A DNA stretch of 22,583 nucleotides from a virus. Its lineage: Duplodnaviria > Heunggongvirae > Uroviricota > Caudoviricetes. This document shows, in pieces, positions 1 to 21,739 of the stretch (within the stretch, counting starts at the first letter, position 1; each line of letters starts with the position of its first letter). A model generated the notes under the pieces. It ran no database searches. It was not told the origin of the DNA and saw only the letters and a program-made list of their open reading frames with translations. The stretch is taken from positions 1 to 22,583 of IMG/VR virus record IMGVR_UViG_2724679236_000013. One strand, given 5' to 3'. The translations under genes were made by a program, and so were the position numbers.

Positions 1-2181
1 TTATGCTACAACTCCACCATTAACCAAAAGTCTCTCGGCTCCATTACTGCTTCCTGCCCCACCATTTGAGAACCTGTTTGTTACACCGTAGTAGAAATTG
101 GGATTCACAAAAGCATTGGCAGAACCTGTTGTTCTTGCAAGCCTGAAGGCATTTTTTGTGCCAATAAATGTTATCCCTCCCCATGGCAGTTGAATTGTTG
201 TGTCAACATAAGTCTGACACCACACACCATATGCAAATCCCTTAATTACACCACCAATAATAATTGCATTTGAAGGTTCTCCTGCAACATAAACTGCGGA
301 GTTAGCCGTTGAGTCTGTCAGGGTTCCTTTCGCATTCAGATTATTCAGGGTACTTGTTGCCGCCGCACCTGATGCAAAAACGACACCATATCCATCCGTG
401 GCTCTTTCAACAACAATGTTATTGAGGATGTGATCACCAAAGACTGTCGCTCCAGATACTGGAGAGAGAAATACACTATTACCCGCAGCCCTGACAGTCC
501 TGTGGCCATTAACAACAACACCATTAGCTTCACCAGTAATGTATATTCCTGAACCTTTGCTATCAAAATCTACATTATTAATCATTGTTAACTTTGAATT
601 ACCCACTCTATCCTGAATACGATAAGCCCCTGAACCAGATTGACCAAATCCTGAAACAATATTGTTTGAGATTACATCTCCATCAACAATGTCTCCAATA
701 AGTATACCTCCAGAGATATTTGAAGAATCTGTTTTGATGCCAACATTATAGATAATATTGGCATCAATAATTGATGGTGGATACGAGACAGAGCCGTCTG
801 CCCCGCCTGAACGATAAATGCCAGTCCAGTTAGTATCACGAATGATATTATGTGCAATCAATATTGAACCGCCGTAAGTTTGATGGCTATTATAGCCAAA
901 CTCAATACCGTGCCTTTTATTGATTAGCGATGAATCCTTCGCAGTGAAATCAGAGTTGTAGGTGAGAATTGTGTTATTTGTAATAATAATATCCCTGTCA
1001 GCAGACAAGGCGTTCACATTTATTCCCTGGCTGGCATCTGACAGTAGCAAATTACCTATAATTTTACCTCCCTTTGATGCCCCTGGAGTACCAGTGTAAG
1101 CGACTATATCACCTCCAGTGGCAAATGTACTGGTTAGGTCCCAATCATTAAGCCAGCATAAATTATCAATAGCTTCCCACTGCCTGCAGCTCTGGAAGAA
1201 TATCCCTGCATTTTTCCATCCGATGCTTCTGCAGCGCCTAACAAATGCCTGCTTAAGTCCAACCATTCTAAATCCATTTGCAGTTTCAGCAGCCGTAGAT
1301 GGTGTCGCACTAACGTTTTTAACTTCAAGCCCTTCCAATTGAAAGATTGTTTGGTCATTTTCAGGCGCCATTACACCGTTAATTTCTGGCGCGGTATATT
1401 CAACTATCATACCGTCGGCAGTTACCCATGGATTAACGCCAGTAAACAAAAGGCCGACTGATGACCTGAATACGCCAGGACTACCAATACAACGATTTTG
1501 AGTGGCCCACCTTGAAAGACCAGTTGCACTGTCAAAGGTATCGTCATCAGGTATAGCACCACATTCTGGCGGAGTGAGAGCATCTTTCTTAACGTTAATC
1601 CATCTCCCCTGACCACTAACTGATGATGGCATGATGACTGAGAATCCATCATGGGCCTCTGTGCTAGTTGCATTCCATCTGAAACAACCACCACCAACAC
1701 CTCTTCCAGCATGAAAGCTTTTTACCGACACTCTCTCCCCGTTATCAATCAGGGACAATTGGGAGAAGGATTGCAAGTCCGCTACCGATTCAAACTCCCC
1801 AATCATCGACATGCCATATGGAGCTTCCAAGTCATGTTTTAGCGCGGCAGGATCATACTTCAACACATTAGGAAAATAGAACTGCTGAGCACCATACGCA
1901 TCATAAACAGCCATAGAATGGCCATGTACAGTAACGAATTTGGCAATCTGTCCGTTATATACCGGATATCCAGCAGCGTTAATGATGATTGGTTGCGAAA
2001 CAGGAATGTGAGAGCCGTCTTCGTTCTCCACATAAACCTGAATCTGGTTTTCAGGATTTACCGGGTCTGTGTCAATTTTACCGATATAAATTTTGCCATT
2101 GGCTACGGCTTTAAAAGAACGCGCCATAGTGAAGAGTTGCGAAGGCATCGATACAATCACATTGGCTGTAATGTCTGTCAT
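1..2181 (-). CDS. Tailspike protein (P22 gp9 family), 726 aa: conserved N-terminal head-binding domain, divergent C-terminal receptor-binding domain
   Basis: The first ~110 aa ([13 protein letters not shown]...[23 protein letters not shown]...VLKYDP) closely match the P22 tailspike head-binding domain as I remember it; the remainder is Gly/Asn/Ile-rich as expected for a beta-helix. Stop codon TAA lies at positions 1-3. Last gene of the late block, as in P22. Confidence 0.9.
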
Positions 2182-2239
2182 TTAATTTGCTCCAGATACA
2201 AGGAATCGCCGCAGCATGGCTACGGTGAATTTTGGGCAT

Positions 2240-2263
2240 AAAAAAACCCAGCCGAAGCTGGGT
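2240..2263 (-). terminator. Rho-independent terminator downstream of ant
   Basis: Perfect 7-bp stem ACCCAGC / GCTGGGT with a 4-nt loop; on the minus strand it is followed by a run of seven T. Lies between the ant stop (2304) and the tailspike start (2181). Confidence 0.6.
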
Positions 2264-2303
2264 CGTTGCGTTGGTTATTGACCTACACTTTTCGTGCAGG
2301 TAG

Positions 2304-3206
2304 TTAAAGTTTAATTGAGTGGCACGCTCTATCACGTATCGCTGCGAATGAAGCTATCTCTTTAAGTGCCCAGCTTTGCTCAGCCATTAAATGGCGAAGT
2401 GCTTTTAGCTCGGCTCTTACTGCTGAAACGTCATACCCCGCTTTTGTCAGAATATCGATTAGTTTATACGCCGGACTGCATTCAACGAGTGCGCTGCGGT
2501 CAAGAGCAACAGTATCACCGCATTGCTGCCTGATAATGGCGTAAGGTGCATTTTCAGCAAACCATGAAATCGGGAAGTTAATATCCAGTTTCGGCGCTGG
2601 TAACTCTTCTTGTTTGCCGATGAACTCACCTTCAAGCACTACCCTGTGGATGTACTCTACGGCTTGCGGTATCTGAGATGCATCAAGCTCTTCAATACTT
2701 TCCACATTGAAACGCTGATGAATCATTGCATAAGCTTCTGGGTACATTAGATGCTTTTTGCTGACTAGCATATTTACAGCATCACGAAGCGGAGTCCTGT
2801 CATCAACAGATGTTTTCTTACGTGCATTTTCTGCCTTTCCCTTTGTCCAGTAGTCATGCAGCACAGTAAAGCATTCTTCCTGGTACTGAATCAGTTTATC
2901 GCGGATGTCAGCACGAACTTTCTCAGGGTTGATGCTGAACAGCCATCCATTTAACTTCTTCAAAGGAAGGCAGAGTAACTTACGAAGCTTCCCATCAGCG
3001 GCAACCATGTTCATATGAACACAGTTGAATTTGCTAATCTGCTTCATGAGTTTTGTTTGCTGCGTTGACCAGCTCATTCCAAGGTTTTCAACGATTGGCT
3101 TCATCGCAACATATGCAACTCCGGCAGCCATGGCGGTGATAATTTGCTGACCGTTGAATGGTACGTAAGAGGTGTTCACTGCTTCTAAAATTGCTATACT
3201 ATTCAT
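2304..3206 (-). CDS. ant: Antirepressor Ant (immI region), 300 aa
   Basis: Lies directly downstream of the Arc-like gene and upstream of the tailspike, the P22 immI arrangement. Start chosen at the internal Met ([10 protein letters not shown]...), which is preceded by GGAG; this gives 300 aa, the size I recall for P22 Ant. The 322-aa extension in the ORF track is probably not translated. Confidence 0.75.
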
Positions 3207-4182: not shown

Positions 4183-4192
4183 CGGTGGGTTT
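4168..4192. terminator. Bidirectional rho-independent terminator between convergent genes
   Basis: AAAAAA-CCCACC-tgac-GGTGGG-TTT: a 6-bp GC-rich stem flanked by an A-run and a T-run. It overlaps the stop of the + strand RHH gene and sits directly beside the stop of the minus-strand toxin-like gene (4191). Confidence 0.55.
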
Positions 4193-4640
4193 AGTCAAAC
4201 ATAGTGTTTCTAAAGTCTCTCGCATACCCTGCTAACACTCTCATTCTATTATGATTGTTAGCAGACATGTGAGCTACAGGATGAAAAAGAGCAATCAATG
4301 AATACCTGTTCTCATCAAAAAGATTTTGTGCATAAACGAGAGCGGTATTGGATGTTTTATGCCACTGCAACTTTTGCGGTGTGCTGATATCTGTGCCATT
4401 TTTTATTGGCTCAAATTTATTTTCACCAATTGCTAAATGAAGGTGCATAAGGCCTGCATCTTCAATATCAGGAGGTCGATGATAAGAGGTGTCTCTGCCA
4501 AAATAGCTGGGCAACGTTCCCGTAGACTTGTAGATGATAAAATCATCTACAAGTGTTTGTTTTAAATCAGGAAACTCAACAAAAACCGGGGAGAAAAAAT
4601 AGTCAAAACTATCCTGATTATATTCCACGGTTACTTGCAT
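4191..4640 (-). CDS. Putative YafO-family toxin-like protein, 149 aa
   Basis: Motifs YFGRD...HLHLA...ALVYAQNLFDE...LIALFHP...NHNRM resemble E. coli YafO (ribosome-dependent mRNA interferase) as I recall it; not verified by search. GAGG ribosome-binding site; start lies 8 nt after the upstream gene's stop. AT-rich cargo DNA. Confidence 0.5.
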   Translation of the reverse strand: MQVTVEYNQDSFDYFFSPVFVEFPDLKQTLVDDFIIYKSTGTLPSYFGRDTSYHRPPDIEDAGLMHLHLAIGENKFEPIKNGTDISTPQKLQWHKTSNTALVYAQNLFDENRYSLIALFHPVAHMSANNHNRMRVLAGYARDFRNTMFD

Positions 4641-4648
4641 GTTTTACC

Positions 4649-5215
4649 TCAGTGGAAGTTACCAGAGTGAAACACACGAGTCCCGTGCTCAGCAAGCGCA
4701 CGCAAACCAGCCATATCTACGGAACTATCAAAAACAACCGGAACACATGAGCGTTGTTTAATAAGACTATTCAGGTTGGTTACGGCAGATCTGGCATCAG
4801 CAACAACGATATAGATATCTCTTGCGATCTCTTTAAAATCAGCAGAAGCTTCTTTGAATACCGATTTCATTGCCCCTTCAAGTCCTCTCAATTGATGCTC
4901 TATCAATCGAGACTTTTCTGGTTCAATGATAGACAACACATTGTCTACATTCTCATCGGTAGCGTTTGCAAGAACACGATAAGCGTATTTCAGCATTCGA
5001 GACAATTCTTTAATCGAAGACACCGCCTCATGAAGCTCATCATTAGCCCGTTCACTGCTGAATGAGGATTGATGGTAAGCGTGCTGAACGTTATCAGTAA
5101 CAACCACCTCACAACTGAACGCAGAAGCTTGCTGTAATAGCAAACCTATTGCGACTCCAGCTTTGGCAGCGTTCAAGCTAAACATTTCATCAATCCTATT
5201 AGTCTCATTGCTCAT
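4649..5215 (-). CDS. Hypothetical protein, 188 aa, translationally coupled upstream partner of the YafO-like ORF (candidate non-canonical antitoxin or regulator)
   Basis: Strong ribosome-binding site AAGGAGG 5 nt upstream of the ATG at 5215 (the ORF track's longer form starts at a TTG). No resemblance to YafN/DinJ/RelB or RHH antitoxins that I can recognise; no transmembrane segment evident. Confidence 0.6.
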   Translation of the reverse strand: MSNETNRIDEMFSLNAAKAGVAIGLLLQQASAFSCEVVVTDNVQHAYHQSSFSSERANDELHEAVSSIKELSRMLKYAYRVLANATDENVDNVLSIIEPEKSRLIEHQLRGLEGAMKSVFKEASADFKEIARDIYIVVADARSAVTNLNSLIKQRSCVPVVFDSSVDMAGLRALAEHGTRVFHSGNFH

Positions 5216-5390
5216 ACAAACCTCCTTCTTATCGGAGATTATCAATAGCTATGCATCCATTGAATACACGCTATGCGCAATAAGTTTACGTCACGTGATA
5301 TCATTATGCAACCACCGTTCTATCACCGACTAACTTTACTCCCACTCCTATACATCATCTGGTATCCTGCGCAAAACTAAGGAGGTTGGT
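5216..5390. promoter_or_regulatory. Divergent intergenic control region of the cargo island
   Basis: A 175-bp AT-rich spacer between divergent starts (5215 minus, 5391 plus). It contains overlapping 8-bp palindromes TCACGTGA (5291-5298) and TGATATCA (5296-5303), candidate operator sites. Confidence 0.4.
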
Positions 5391-5813
5391 GTGTTTGGTA
5401 TATTAAAGAAAAGCAAGATAAAAAAATTAAGGGCAGAACTCGCCGAAACACAAAAACTGGCTTCACATTTTTACAAAATGAAATACGACGCTGAAGAGCG
5501 TGCATTCGTTGAGTTATGCGATTTATCTATTCGTATGGGAGTAGAGCCAGATGTAGCGGCAAAAACTCAACAAGGCATTGATATACTTGCAGATGTTGTT
5601 TTAAACAGGCAATATGCGTTTTATCTAAACGAGAAGGCCATTCAGATTTACTCGCAAATCTTCCTCCTAGAAAAAAGAAGAGGAACTCACGATCGAGAAG
5701 AGTGGTTAAATGAAGTTGTTAAAAAATCTGGCTGGGAAGTTGTTTCATCAGAACTACCTCTTATTTGTGCTGATTTAATCGAAGAGGCAAAAGAGCGCCT
5801 ATCCGATGGCTAG
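5391..5813 (+). CDS. Hypothetical protein, 140 aa (cargo gene of unknown function)
   Basis: GTG start at 5391 preceded by AAGGAGG at 5-nt spacing. Divergent from the toxin-like operon and convergent on gp16; no recognisable domain. Confidence 0.55.
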   Translation: MFGILKKSKIKKLRAELAETQKLASHFYKMKYDAEERAFVELCDLSIRMGVEPDVAAKTQQGIDILADVVLNRQYAFYLNEKAIQIYSQIFLLEKRRGTHDREEWLNEVVKKSGWEVVSSELPLICADLIEEAKERLSDG

Positions 5814-10045: not shown

Positions 10046-10504
10046 CTATCTCCCGTGCTTCAAGAAGTCGATTAGTTCTTCGCGTGTGGCGCTGTAAAAC
10101 GTCACGTCATCCACGCCTTTGAAGTATTTCTTGATGGTTCCTACACGCTTAAGGCCAATCATTGCGCAGTACATCTGCCCGTGGCGGAATTTGCGTGCAG
10201 CGAACGATGTGACGCACTGAACGGTGGTGTTAGTCAGAATGTATCGCCAGAACGCCAGCCCGATTTCCTTGCTGAAGCCGCGAATCTCTGGCAGGTACAT
10301 GGCGTGGCAATCAAAGGTCAGCGGCTGAATCTCCTGATAGTAAACAATGCCGCCGAACTGCCCGTGCACGTTCACCTCAAAGTAACGGCAATCAGGTTTG
10401 TAGTCGTATCCATCACCGTTGTTGCTACCAGCGATAATGTCAGGGTGATTTCCGACTGCTTCGATCAGGTCGATGTTTCGCGTTGGTTTGAACTGAATCA
10501 TCAC
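10046..10504 (-). CDS. P22 gp14-like head/DNA-stabilisation protein, 152 aa
   Basis: Positional homolog between gp26 and gp7; its start overlaps the gp26 stop (ATGA). Confidence 0.55.
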
Positions 10505-11349
10505 TGCTCCGCGATTATCTTGATGGTTGTGGCAGTAAACGCCGCCCCATTTGACTGAATGGTTAACGTACTGCCATTTGTGGCAAGAAAGCCGTCTTTA
10601 TCCACGCTGAAGAACGTAGCTAACAGGATGTTGTCGGTTGTCGTCGCCGCATTACGACTGCTGACCAGTGTGTCAGGAACAGAGCCGGAAAAGGTTAGCT
10701 GCATTGACCTGTTTGCGGTTCCGCTGGGCCACGTCCCGACGATCGACAGTTTGAAGAACAAGGTTTTGTTCTCGTTGAACACAACCATCTTGTTGTTAGC
10801 AGTGTCGAAGAATGGTGCCAACGCGCCAGATGACGGCGTGAGCGTTTTCAGCAGGCTAACAAGGTTGGTCGGCGCTGTCGGAATGGTTACTGATACGCCA
10901 GAGTAAACAACCTCTGACTTTTTGCGAGTAGTGGCATACTCCAGAGCATCAATGCGCGTTTCATGGTCTGAAACCTGCGACTCCAGCGACTGAACTCTGG
11001 TATCAAGCGACGCAATATCGCTTTCATTCTGAGCGATTCGCGTTTCATGTTCCTGAAGAGTTGATTCTGCCTGGCTGATTCGCTCCTCATGATTAACAAG
11101 CGTTGCTTCCGCAGCAGAAATTCGCTGCTCATGGTCAGCGAGAATCACATCCTGCTCATCGTTCCTGACTTGTGCGTCATAAGCGCCCTGTCCGGCCTCG
11201 TTGGCCTTGTTAGCCACGTTACCAACATCAGTGCCCTGTGCGATAACGTAAAGCAGATACGACTGCGAGAAGATATTGCGTGGAAGAACTGATGTGTCGA
11301 GTCGTGTAGCCTGAATGATTACCGGCACATTGAGATTCGAATCCGCCAT
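10501..11349 (-). CDS. Tail needle (P22 gp26 family) with Sf6-type C-terminal knob domain, 282 aa
   Basis: N-terminus [43 protein letters not shown]...NDEQDV is near-identical to the P22 gp26 N-terminal tip as I remember it. Central heptad-like repeats ([49 protein letters not shown]) indicate a trimeric coiled coil. The C-terminal ~130 aa are beta-rich, like the Sf6 needle knob, not the P22 helical tip. Confidence 0.85.
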
Positions 11350-11843
11350 TACTCAATCCTCTGCCTTGCAAACTCTCCAAAATTTTCTGCTCTTGCCATC
11401 ATTGATGCTGAGATAGCTTCGTCCAGGTCATCGAAGCATCCAACGTGAACCTGTTTTTTATTTTTCTTGAAAGAAACAGTCCACTTGCAGAGATTTTTGT
11501 GCCAACAGACACCCGGATATCCTGACTTATTATTTCTTTGAATATTCCTGTTCATCCCATTCTGGGATCTATTTGCCAATCTTAAATTTGAAAATCTGTT
11601 ATCCGTTCTGTCTCCGTTAATATGATCTATTAAGCAATTTGCAGGTTTTCCTGTCATATAAAACCAAGCAAGCCTATGCGCTAAGTATCTCTTACCACAG
11701 ACCATTATCCTTAAATAACCAGTGCACATGGTTCCCGCTTCATCACCAACGGTGACGCTCGCTGTATTTGATATTTTTCGGGTAAAAACCCCGGTTTCTG
11801 GGTCATATGATAAATGACGCTTCAACTCTTCATGTGAAATCAT
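11349..11843 (-). CDS. HNH homing endonuclease with AP2-like DNA-binding domain, 164 aa
   Basis: HNH-type motif [31 protein letters not shown] followed by an AP2-like segment ([40 protein letters not shown]). Inserted between gp10 and gp26, which are adjacent in P22. Its stop overlaps the gp26 start (TAATG) and its start lies 2 nt after the gp10 stop. Confidence 0.75.
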
Positions 11844-11845
11844 TA

Positions 11846-13264
11846 TTACTCCAGCCTAATAGAGCAGCCAGACAGAGTGACAGGTGACTTCGTGATAACG
11901 CGCAATTTGAAGCCAACATTTTTCCTGATGCGCCCTACTCGCTTCCACAAAACACGTTTGTCGTAAACGAACGGTTCATTCTGCTCAATCATCTGCTCAC
12001 GCCCGTAATTGATGCCGTCAGTGGTTGCAGAGAGGAACAGGCGGTCAGCGTACTGAGCGACACCCGTCGATGATTCAACTTCCAGATCGAAGCATCTGCC
12101 GTTATCCGCTTTGAACAACGGAGTAAACAGAAGGTGTTCCTGTTGCTTGTCGTACTGGCTGCTGATGTCGAACTGCAATTTCCCGGTCACCGATTCCAGC
12201 TTATCGCCGCACGTTATCTGATTGCCTTCGTAAATGAAGTCGATAGCGCGGTACACATCGTCATACAGGCCTGTTTTCAACACACACCATTGCGGACCAT
12301 TGGCGCTTGAAGATGCGTCGTACACCAGAACATGGCGCGGAAGGTGGATAATCAGCAGTTCATGCGCATCAAATCGCAGCGATTCCATCACACCATCAGC
12401 CAGTTCATCAGCAGTGTAGGAGCGTAGTATTTTCTCAATGCTCGCGCTGGCGATTGGTGATACCTGACCGGAGCCGATGATATACACAGACGGCGCACCT
12501 GTTGCCGGATTGCTGATGAACGCATACGAGTCAGCAAACGGCGTTTTGCAGTAAGTCCCGGCAATGCCTTTTTGCACCATCAGTGATGGCTGTGCGACAT
12601 ACAAAGCAGCACCAACGGTGGTTGCGCCAGTAAGGGAGAAATATTCAATAGTCGATGAACCAAAGCAGACGATGAAGTCTCGCCATGTCCCGATACCGAT
12701 GATGCCGTCCGGCTGAGACTCGGCACGATATTGTGCGCTGTAGCGGTCAGGGTGCGATTCGTCTTCAAGGTCAGTGATAAACCATGAATCAGTGCCGTCT
12801 TTTGACCACGCATAACGCCCACGTAAGCGCGTAATGTCGCGGACTGAACCTAACTCATACTGCGTGAATCCGCTGTCTGTAGGCCAGTTTGAGACGGTTT
12901 TAACCGTGCCATCATAGCGATACTCGACCAGTTGACCATTAACGCCTACTGCCTGTGATGTCCTACCGTGTGCCATTGATACGCGACCACTTCCGGCAAC
13001 ATCACCGACCTCGCTTTCGCCCTTATACAGCTTGCCGCCACACACGCGATATACAGCATTCTGCGCCATGTTGTACTCGACGCCGCGCGATACGCCGTTC
13101 ACATCAGAACGTTTGGCAATGCCCGGGAATGAGCGAAGATATCCGCTGCTGTTAAGGATTTCTTTGGGTGTAGCCAACATATTCACTGGCAGATAGTCGA
13201 TATAGTCGGCGTTTCGAAAGTCTTTGCCGACACCTTTCATAAGCGGAAGTTGCTGAATCGGCAT
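11846..13264 (-). CDS. Tail accessory/hub protein, P22 gp10 family, 472 aa
   Basis: Synteny after gp4 and the same length as I recall for P22 gp10. Confidence 0.75.
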   Translation of the reverse strand: MPIQQLPLMKGVGKDFRNADYIDYLPVNMLATPKEILNSSGYLRSFPGIAKRSDVNGVSRGVEYNMAQNAVYRVCGGKLYKGESEVGDVAGSGRVSMAHGRTSQAVGVNGQLVEYRYDGTVKTVSNWPTDSGFTQYELGSVRDITRLRGRYAWSKDGTDSWFITDLEDESHPDRYSAQYRAESQPDGIIGIGTWRDFIVCFGSSTIEYFSLTGATTVGAALYVAQPSLMVQKGIAGTYCKTPFADSYAFISNPATGAPSVYIIGSGQVSPIASASIEKILRSYTADELADGVMESLRFDAHELLIIHLPRHVLVYDASSSANGPQWCVLKTGLYDDVYRAIDFIYEGNQITCGDKLESVTGKLQFDISSQYDKQQEHLLFTPLFKADNGRCFDLEVESSTGVAQYADRLFLSATTDGINYGREQMIEQNEPFVYDKRVLWKRVGRIRKNVGFKLRVITKSPVTLSGCSIRLE

Positions 13265-13273
13265 TTATTCACC

Positions 13274-13735
13274 TCACGTACTCGGATCATCTTTCTCGAT
13301 GTAAAACCGATTCCACGTAAACGCGCTTTTGTTACCACTACCGCGAGGCATGTCATTTCGCCGCTCAAGTGGTGGTATTTTGGTTAAAGCGATACAGATT
13401 GTTTGATATGCACTGTCAGCAGCGGTAAGGAGAGCGTCTGACGGCTGAATGACGTTATCCATGCACACTTGCACAGCGAGTTTCAAAGCGACGCCATCAT
13501 TTGCCCATGCAGGGATACCTGAATCATCGTCAGGTAACGGCATGATGCCGTTTTCTGTATCAGCAAACTGATACCCAAGCTCGATACCTTTCGCCTGCCA
13601 TGCTGCCATCATGTCTTCGAGGTCATTAATAGCATCTTCAATTGCCTGAGGGTCAGCATCTGTCAACGTGGCATTGGAATACAGCCCGGCTTTTCGTAAA
13701 GCCTTTAGAACGAGATCACCCTTCGTTTTCGCCAT
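13274..13735 (-). CDS. Head-to-tail adaptor, P22 gp4 family, 153 aa
   Basis: Synteny between coat and gp10; size close to P22 gp4. Confidence 0.7.
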   Translation of the reverse strand: MAKTKGDLVLKALRKAGLYSNATLTDADPQAIEDAINDLEDMMAAWQAKGIELGYQFADTENGIMPLPDDDSGIPAWANDGVALKLAVQVCMDNVIQPSDALLTAADSAYQTICIALTKIPPLERRNDMPRGSGNKSAFTWNRFYIEKDDPST

Positions 13736-21208: not shown

Positions 21209-21739
21209 TCACACCATTCCGGGCAAATACATTTGCACTTCATTTGCCGCTCTCTCACGTGCAACATGAAGCAATCTTTTTCGCCCACCAACGCCCCACT
21301 TAGCCATTTGGCTTGCGCACTGGCTTATCGCTTTGGTTTCAGTATTGATGATGTGATCGATTCTATTCAGACGGGACATTGCGCCAACGCCGAGACGGAC
21401 AACCGTTTTGAAAACTTCATAAACTTCGATTTCAAATTCCGGCTTAATCCATGCTGCATATCTGATTGCCAGAAGTTCAACACCCCACACACCTGGTTCT
21501 GCACCACCTTTGATTATTTTAAGTGGTTGAATTTGTTCCAAAGTGCTTTTTTGCACTTTGGCCTCCAGTGCTTTTATGAAGCGTTTTATCTGCGCGCTAC
21601 GCAAAAACTGGCTTGGGCGCTGTTGCTCTGTAGCCTCTCCATTTGCAACTGCTGCTGCATGGAGATCGTTTAAGTTGTAGCGTCCATCCTCATCAACACG
21701 AACGGACACGCCATTGACAATAACTGTTGGGTACTTCAT
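21209..21739 (-). CDS. KilA-N domain DNA-binding protein, 176 aa
   Basis: N-terminal segment (VIVNGVSVRVDEDGRYNLNDLHAAA...QRPSQFLRSAQIKRFIKAL) fits the KilA-N/APSES-like pattern common in phage accessory proteins. Confidence 0.55.
   Translation of the reverse strand: MKYPTVIVNGVSVRVDEDGRYNLNDLHAAAVANGEATEQQRPSQFLRSAQIKRFIKALEAKVQKSTLEQIQPLKIIKGGAEPGVWGVELLAIRYAAWIKPEFEIEVYEVFKTVVRLGVGAMSRLNRIDHIINTETKAISQCASQMAKWGVGGRKRLLHVARERAANEVQMYLPGMV

Follow-up and report, generated by a model that had tools for sequence, protein, structure and literature searches.

A complete tailspike gene in a P22-like prophage

The window analysed here, which is the whole 22,583-nucleotide (nt) stretch of the IMG/VR virus record IMGVR_UViG_2724679236_000013, starts exactly at the stop codon of a tailspike gene. 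The open reading frame (ORF) list gives this gene as complete and intact on the minus strand (1..2181; ATG at 2181-2179, 726 codons, TAA stop at 3-1). The exact protein is on record as WP_059268032.1, 'phage tailspike protein [Escherichia albertii]', and a Shine-Dalgarno sequence, GGAG, can be read 8 nt upstream of the ATG (2190..2193, minus strand). The rest of the window comes from a P22-like prophage and spans its late and immI region, with late genes for an Sf6-type small terminase, a large terminase, the P22 portal and coat, gp4, gp10, gp26, gp7, gp20 and gp16; Arc/Mnt-like repressors and the antirepressor Ant are also encoded. As is characteristic of P22-like phages, the tailspike gene comes last among the late genes, downstream of immI/ant, and the same genome encodes P22-type portal, coat, gp4, gp10 and gp26. 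CUS-3 and other P22-like phages share this ant-tailspike gene order, and CUS-3 is the closest phage genome, covering 62% of the window at 94.8% identity.

An initial annotation of this DNA had described the gene as a mosaic tailspike, in which a conserved head-binding domain is joined to a divergent receptor-binding body. Our analysis supports this description, for which the matches lie far beyond chance, with three corrections: the gene is encoded by the minus strand; Sf6, CUS-3 and HK620 are nearer relatives of the head-binding domain than P22 is; and the architecture comprises three modules, with a body family that has already been catalogued.

The head-binding domain and its junction

The virion-docking, or head-binding, domain spans amino acids (aa) 1-112 (1846..2181, minus strand) and ends in a conserved NVLKYDP motif, as delimited by Pfam, PDB and nucleotide matches. 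Pfam Head_binding (PF09008) covers aa 1-112 over its full profile (E=7.6e-65). Searching PDB sequences matched the N-terminus alone, with Sf6 gp14 aligned over aa 1-118 (E=1e-62) and the P22 tailspike over aa 1-138 (E=5e-49); a second P22 stretch, in the body, was not significant in the same search (i-Evalue 180), in keeping with the claim that the body is unrelated to the P22 endorhamnosidase. The first 111 aa are 90% identical to Sf6 and 74% identical to P22, so that P22-type head binding is borne out for this segment and P22 as its closest relative is not. Megablast against 50,697 phage records gave matches confined to nt 1848-2181, where nucleotide identity is 95% to CUS-3, 92% to HK620 and 87.5% to Sf6. 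Judged by these identities, the head-binding domain is nearer to Sf6, CUS-3 and HK620 than to P22. All of the phage nucleotide matches stop within 5 nt of one another (nt 1848-1853), just past NVLKYDP, with nt 1848 corresponding to residue 111. This sharp edge bears out the proposed domain swap, in which a head-binding domain nearly the same as in many P22-like phages sits on a different body cassette. Near-identity of the body to Sf6, HK620 or CUS-3, which would have made it a known tailspike, was also checked: DNA similarity to these phages extends no further than residue 111, and the best phage relatives of the body are 44-45% identical.

In P22 and Sf6 the head-binding domain docks the tailspike trimer on the gp4/gp10 tail hub. 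Genes for both docking partners are present in the window, within a minus-strand block of tail-hub genes (10501..13735) that comprises a gp4-like gene (13274-13735; Pfam P22_Tail-4), a gp10-like gene (11846-13264) and a needle gp26-like gene (10501-11349); Phage_stabilise and Phage_tail_NK are among the Pfam bases for the gp10 and gp26 assignments.

A neck that travels with the adaptor and a helix that does not

Beyond the junction lie a further 614 aa, and here the protein is divided again. A linker and small 'neck' domain (aa 113-205; 1567..1845, minus strand), with the motifs IGEFESV...GGGxFRW...GRW, leads into aa 206-726 (4..1566, minus strand), predicted to be a right-handed beta-helix together with a C-terminal part. 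This segment would be the receptor-binding, putatively catalytic and exchangeable specificity cassette. Per-segment identities separate the two. Among P22-type spikes the neck is 77-85% identical even where helix identity is no more than 34-56%; non-P22 spikes show the reverse, with 79-94% identity in the helix and 54-57% in the neck. Similarly, DNA identity to two E. coli family members is at least 90% up to about aa 160 and then collapses. From aa 198 onwards, the helix recurs with hardly a residue changed in an E. albertii protein of 822 aa that has a different adaptor (94% identity over the alignment of aa 117-726). In profile searches the neck matches the N-terminal domains of the Klebsiella K2 tailspike (8iq9/8iqe), WceF (6tgf) and Acinetobacter gp49 (6c72) with E-values of about 1e-6 to 1e-7. 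The GC content of third codon positions (GC3) is 31.7% in the helix, compared with 41-44% in the neck and head-binding domain and an overall GC content of 48% in the rest of the window; the AT-rich third positions of the helix would fit an origin other than that of the rest of the prophage. Based on the per-segment identities and the GC3 contrast, we therefore regard the helix as a mobile cassette and place the neck on the adaptor side. The sequence comparisons thus describe an architecture of three modules (head-binding domain, neck and helix), in which the neck, about 90 residues long, goes together with the P22-type adaptor.

The tailspikes Sf6 gp14, CUS-3 SiaK1, HK620 gp9 and P22 gp9 likewise consist of an adaptor and a beta-helix joined at ...NVLKYDP, with the gene after ant. 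Their bodies, which are an endorhamnosidase in Sf6 and P22, an endo-N-acetylglucosaminidase in HK620 and an endosialidase in CUS-3, share no detectable sequence with aa 113-726. The extra neck domain is also a difference from these four spikes, as is length: 726 aa here and 623-667 aa for Sf6 and P22, so that the protein is indeed longer than the 667-aa tailspike of P22.

A catalogued but uncharacterised body family

A protein search with the body alone returned the exact protein in E. albertii and about 25 homologues, with E-values down to 0. An E. coli homologue of the same architecture has a body that is 87% identical, and bodies 84% and 79% identical stand behind two other N-terminal adaptors. 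In the range of 79-94% identity, the other adaptors preceding the body are that of the 822-aa protein (P0003, P0049) and one of the PF18668 type (P0004). At about 51% identity the body is found in many P22-type spikes of E. coli and E. fergusonii, and at 44-49% in further proteins. An exhaustive profile search of 1.84 billion representatives found no more than about six close clusters at the 50% level, separated by a gap from a wider superfamily of beta-helix proteins, which counts 41 members at E<=1e-30 and 1083 at E<=1e-3.

The sole full-length relatives of the body in the phage collection are gp1 of the Shigella phage ChubbyThor (Agtrevirus; 45%) and the Kayfunavirus PDP351P3/P4 tail fibre (44-45%). 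Their homologous neck and helix cover 99-100% of the body and belong to a PF27114-type family; what differs is the adaptor, which is PF18668 alone or, in PDP351P4, a T7 tail-fibre N-terminus with PF18668, and the phages concerned are lytic. Bodies at 44-51% identity are thus found behind T7-type (PDP351P4) and Agtrevirus (ChubbyThor gp1) adaptors, and these alignments indicate that the helix family is swapped as a cassette among P22-like, T7-like, Ackermannviridae and other tail adaptors. The specificity of the ChubbyThor and PDP351 spikes probably differs from that of the spike studied here, given an identity of 44-45%. ChubbyThor gp1 is listed as an untyped, uncharacterised tailspike protein (PMC10892097), and the literature on the PDP351 phages gives no host serotype. 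The O8-specific AV101 TSP1 and other characterised Agtrevirus spikes were considered as relatives and rejected, ChubbyThor gp1 being the only one to surface.

The Pfam scan gave no tailspike-body family match, the Pectate-lyase-like and Beta_helix families (PF12708, PF13229) did not match the tailspike at E<=1, and NCBIfam had no match for it; relatives at 21-51% identity do score for PF12708/PF13229-type families. PHROGs matched the adaptor and neck only. In precomputed tables, PF27114 (Phage_tail_beta) is listed for the body of the exact protein. The suggestion that the body is an uncharacterised depolymerase consequently needs qualifying: the family is uncharacterised instead of unknown, protein databases already listing it with about 30 close homologues, and its role as a depolymerase is a prediction.

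Structure prediction and conserved residues

AlphaFold2 with a family alignment gave a confident all-beta solenoid for aa 201-726 and low confidence for aa 1-200, including the neck. In this model aa 206-726 form a right-handed parallel beta-helix, which is the predicted counterpart of the body fold of P22-like spikes. Foldseek against the PDB and BFVD returned generic beta-helix matches with low TM-scores, which we attribute to the unreliable N-terminal 200 residues of the model. The receptor-binding domain of the cyanophage Pam1 tailspike (PDB 7EEA), from an unrelated host, resembles the body in fold only (13% identity). No solved tailspike body matches the helix among PDB sequences in single-sequence or profile searches. 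Specifically, a body-only alignment profile reached the neck domains of the Klebsiella K2 spike, WceF and Acinetobacter spikes and never the helix, so that no solved homologue can be used to transfer catalytic residues.

Among 43 relatives at 21-48% identity, D358, S381, R423 and G492 are invariant and H424, Y430 and Y456 nearly so; the close family additionally keeps D346 and D348. From alignments A1, A2 and A3 we infer that the NDWD...GGD motif (aa 345-358; 1108..1149, minus strand) contains the candidate catalytic acid or acids. Alignments A2 and A3 point to the KRHGI...GY... motif (aa 422-459; 805..918, minus strand) as a source of candidate active-site or substrate-groove residues. The candidate active-site residues suggested by these patterns are D346/D348/D358, R423/H424 and Y430/Y456.

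Co-occurrence with an O-antigen gene cluster

Contig BBVS01000009.1 of E. albertii CB9791, a strain that has been typed as EAOg35 (PMC6927306 supplement table), matches the window without a difference over 12,181 nt. By our reading of the columns of that supplement, EAOg35 has no counterpart E. coli O-antigen gene cluster and no typeable serogroup listed. The identical tailspike is found in two E. albertii assemblies, and read-level assemblies of other sequencing runs contain it as well. The spike body and the same Wzy cluster are both present in the CB9791 assembly, in the complete chromosomes CP117678.1 and CP117615.1 and in a 634,686-bp contig, and accession-series pairs point to two or three further E. 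albertii genomes with both the body and Wzy. Every E. albertii genome found with the body has the EAOg35-type Wzy.

Among 5,426 complete E. coli genomes, 54 contain the body (38 full-length, 16 partial). The two E. coli loci examined, in KBN10P04869 and strain 19-5, are one common prophage remnant, riddled with insertion sequences (IS), between sbcB and dacD, and the positions of most other E. coli matches suggest that they belong to the same sequence type 410 (ST410)-type lineage. About 30 kb separate this remnant from the his-gnd O-antigen cluster, a distance at which spike remnant and cluster could transfer together. This cluster is of the Wzx/Wzy type and holds gmd-fcl-gmm-manC-manB and two acetyltransferases. 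Its Wzy has close relatives in E. albertii only, at 81% identity, one of which is in the CB9791 contig BBVS01000051.1 within a collinear cluster. In the collinear 5' half, identity between CB9791 and E. coli is 76-88% for the acetyltransferase, Wzx, Wzy, a glycosyltransferase and a 294-aa protein. Neither the EAOg35-type nor the E. coli O-antigen cluster contains a uronic-acid-specific gene.

The spike of the ST410-type remnant (WP_053915615.1 / P0002) has the same three modules and the same length as the window's spike, an 87% identical body at the amino-acid level, a homologous GDSL gene downstream and, in its host, an O-antigen cluster that is orthologous in the 5' half. It differs in lying within a defective, IS-riddled remnant and in being often truncated, and body DNA identity is 70-86% outside a patch of 94-97% at aa 299-358. 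The remnants (L006, L008) are heavily decayed, with a terminase gene fused to a gp16 fragment and with IS100, IS421, IS66 and IS3. IS100 has removed the first 18 codons of the spike in many E. coli genomes (a 708-aa form, 229 contigs).

The galF-gnd locus of KBN10P04869 (L007, CP026473.1 1,811,068-1,823,509) is a Wzx/Wzy-type fucose cluster, and no wzm/wzt lies between gnd and his. Published papers give ST410 isolates of this lineage as O8:H9 by SerotypeFinder, a label that sits uneasily with this locus.

Proposed function and alternatives

Tailspike bodies are the main determinant of the O-serotype that a P22-like phage can infect, and they are useful as depolymerase reagents. We consider it likely that the gene encodes the functional P22-like (gene-9 equivalent) tailspike of an apparently intact E. 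albertii CB9791 prophage, whose helix binds and cleaves the EAOg35-type O-antigen, more likely as a hydrolase. The main argument for O-antigen specificity combines two findings: the same helix is carried by two different prophage adaptors in hosts that share one O-antigen cluster, and spike and cluster diverge in parallel between E. albertii and E. coli. That the body predicts host serotype, as had been suggested, gains backing from its co-occurrence with one type of O-antigen gene cluster. By analogy with P22, Sf6 and HK620, the head-binding domain would dock the trimer on the gp4/gp10 hub. The helix would then bind and cleave the O-antigen repeats specified by the EAOg35-type cluster of the host, and this cleavage would let the virion work its way down to the outer membrane ahead of DNA ejection. 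We take the O-unit to contain fucose because the Wzx/Wzy-dependent EAOg35-type cluster carries GDP-L-fucose pathway genes, and it is probably O-acetylated because the cluster has acetyltransferase genes. Hydrolysis by an endoglycosidase is favoured over beta-elimination since the cluster is without uronic-acid genes. Overall, the sequence evidence suggests that the protein is probably an O-antigen-specific depolymerase of the hydrolase kind.

Several observations weigh against this proposal. The structural model is of a monomer and is unreliable for aa 1-200; the body family is biochemically and structurally uncharacterised; and among acidic residues only D358 stays invariant in distant relatives. 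Of the enzymes compared by rigid-body fold, a mannuronan epimerase gives the strongest match, closely followed by lyases. Co-occurrence of body and cluster may stem partly from shared ancestry, as the E. coli carriers look clonal and the E. albertii genomes are possibly related. In addition, the glycosyltransferase that follows the collinear part of the clusters differs between E. coli and E. albertii, so that the two O-antigens may differ.

The fold neighbours, together with the Arg-His-Tyr pattern, would fit a mechanism in which the same tailspike acts as a polysaccharide lyase, by beta-elimination, or as an epimerase-like enzyme instead of as a glycoside hydrolase. We think this unlikely: identity to all lyases is at most 15%, the close family keeps D346, D348 and D358 as a possible hydrolase pair, and the O-antigen clusters hold GDP-fucose, GDP-mannose, acetyltransferase and glycosyltransferase genes and no uronic-acid-specific gene. 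Another surface polysaccharide (capsule, colanic acid or enterobacterial common antigen) could be the receptor, as capsule is for CUS-3, which is the closest phage genome overall and has an endosialidase spike on the same adaptor. The resemblance of the neck to the necks of capsule depolymerases fits such a receptor, as does a match to PHROG 8280, 'colanic acid degradation', which extends over aa 1-162 only. The helix itself, however, matches none of the capsule or colanic acid depolymerases, the body is accompanied by one Wzy/Wzx type in both species, and the E. coli spike gene is about 30 kb from the O-antigen cluster; a receptor other than the O-antigen accordingly seems quite improbable to us. 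It would be more surprising still if the gene were a non-functional relic or encoded a binding-only spike devoid of enzymatic activity. All E. coli copies do lie in decayed prophage, most of them N-terminally truncated by IS100, but the ORF in the window is full length, has a Shine-Dalgarno sequence and follows a complete late gene set, the identical protein recurs in the E. albertii assemblies and read-level assemblies described above, and the polar motifs are conserved over 21-48% identity.

Taken as a whole, the gene is a mosaic tailspike of the textbook kind; the domain swap that it exemplifies is ordinary and well known, and current understanding of tailspike biology is unchanged by it. 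What it provides is a testable enzyme-substrate pairing for the E. albertii O-genotype EAOg35 and, by homology, a pointer to the O-antigen of the E. coli ST410-type lineage. It also illustrates how one receptor-binding cassette moves among temperate podoviruses, T7-like phages and Ackermannviridae. A more ambitious and, in our view, doubtful extension is that the helix founds a new, biochemically undescribed O-antigen depolymerase family with an unusual, conserved Asp-Ser-Arg-His-Tyr constellation, that the E. coli homologue is specific for the O-antigen of the high-risk ST410-type lineage, that the pair could serve as a typing or anti-virulence reagent, and that together with the GDSL esterase the spike makes up a 'cut and modify' receptor module.

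Neighbouring genes

Just past window position 1 (L003 12555-13259), in convergent orientation to the tailspike gene, lies the gene for the membrane-anchored GDSL/SGNH protein of 234 aa. This protein shares 79% identity with its counterpart next to the ST410-type spike of E. coli, where the following gene encodes an AT3 acyltransferase, and is a candidate O-antigen (de)acetylation conversion module travelling with the spike. On the other side of the tailspike gene, a terminator scan and the sequence locate a terminator-like, GC-rich hairpin with a T-run (2245..2264, minus strand) between it and its upstream neighbour, the antirepressor gene ant (P22_AR_N; 2304..3206, minus strand).

The immI-like region at window 4191-5813 has three extra ORFs: a YafO_toxin-like ORF (4191-4640, minus strand), preceded by a 188/198-aa ORF of unknown function (phrog_8416; 4649-5245, minus strand), and a 140-aa orphan ORF on the strand opposite to the YafO_toxin-like ORF (5391-5813). 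PADLOC gave no match for these small ORFs, which may be a toxin-antitoxin or exclusion moron. Inserted between the gp10-like and gp26-like genes is an HNH endonuclease gene with HNH_3 and AP2 domains (11349-11843, minus strand). It is missing from the same prophage region in E. albertii GCA_027566315.1, in which gene order is the same and the tailspike identical, and for this reason it looks like a mobile, homing-type insertion. The scaffold position is occupied by a 297-aa ORF with no family match, and a gene for a KilA-N domain protein (21209-21739, minus strand) is flanked by the Rz-like lysis gene and by the gp49/DUF2560 genes that precede the terminase genes. Past the prophage end (L003 14675-22181) are an alpha/beta hydrolase gene and three type III effector-like genes (OspG/NleH-type kinase, NleG and PipA), followed by ybhB-bioA-bioB-bioF, which would place the element at a lambda-att-like site beside the bio operon.
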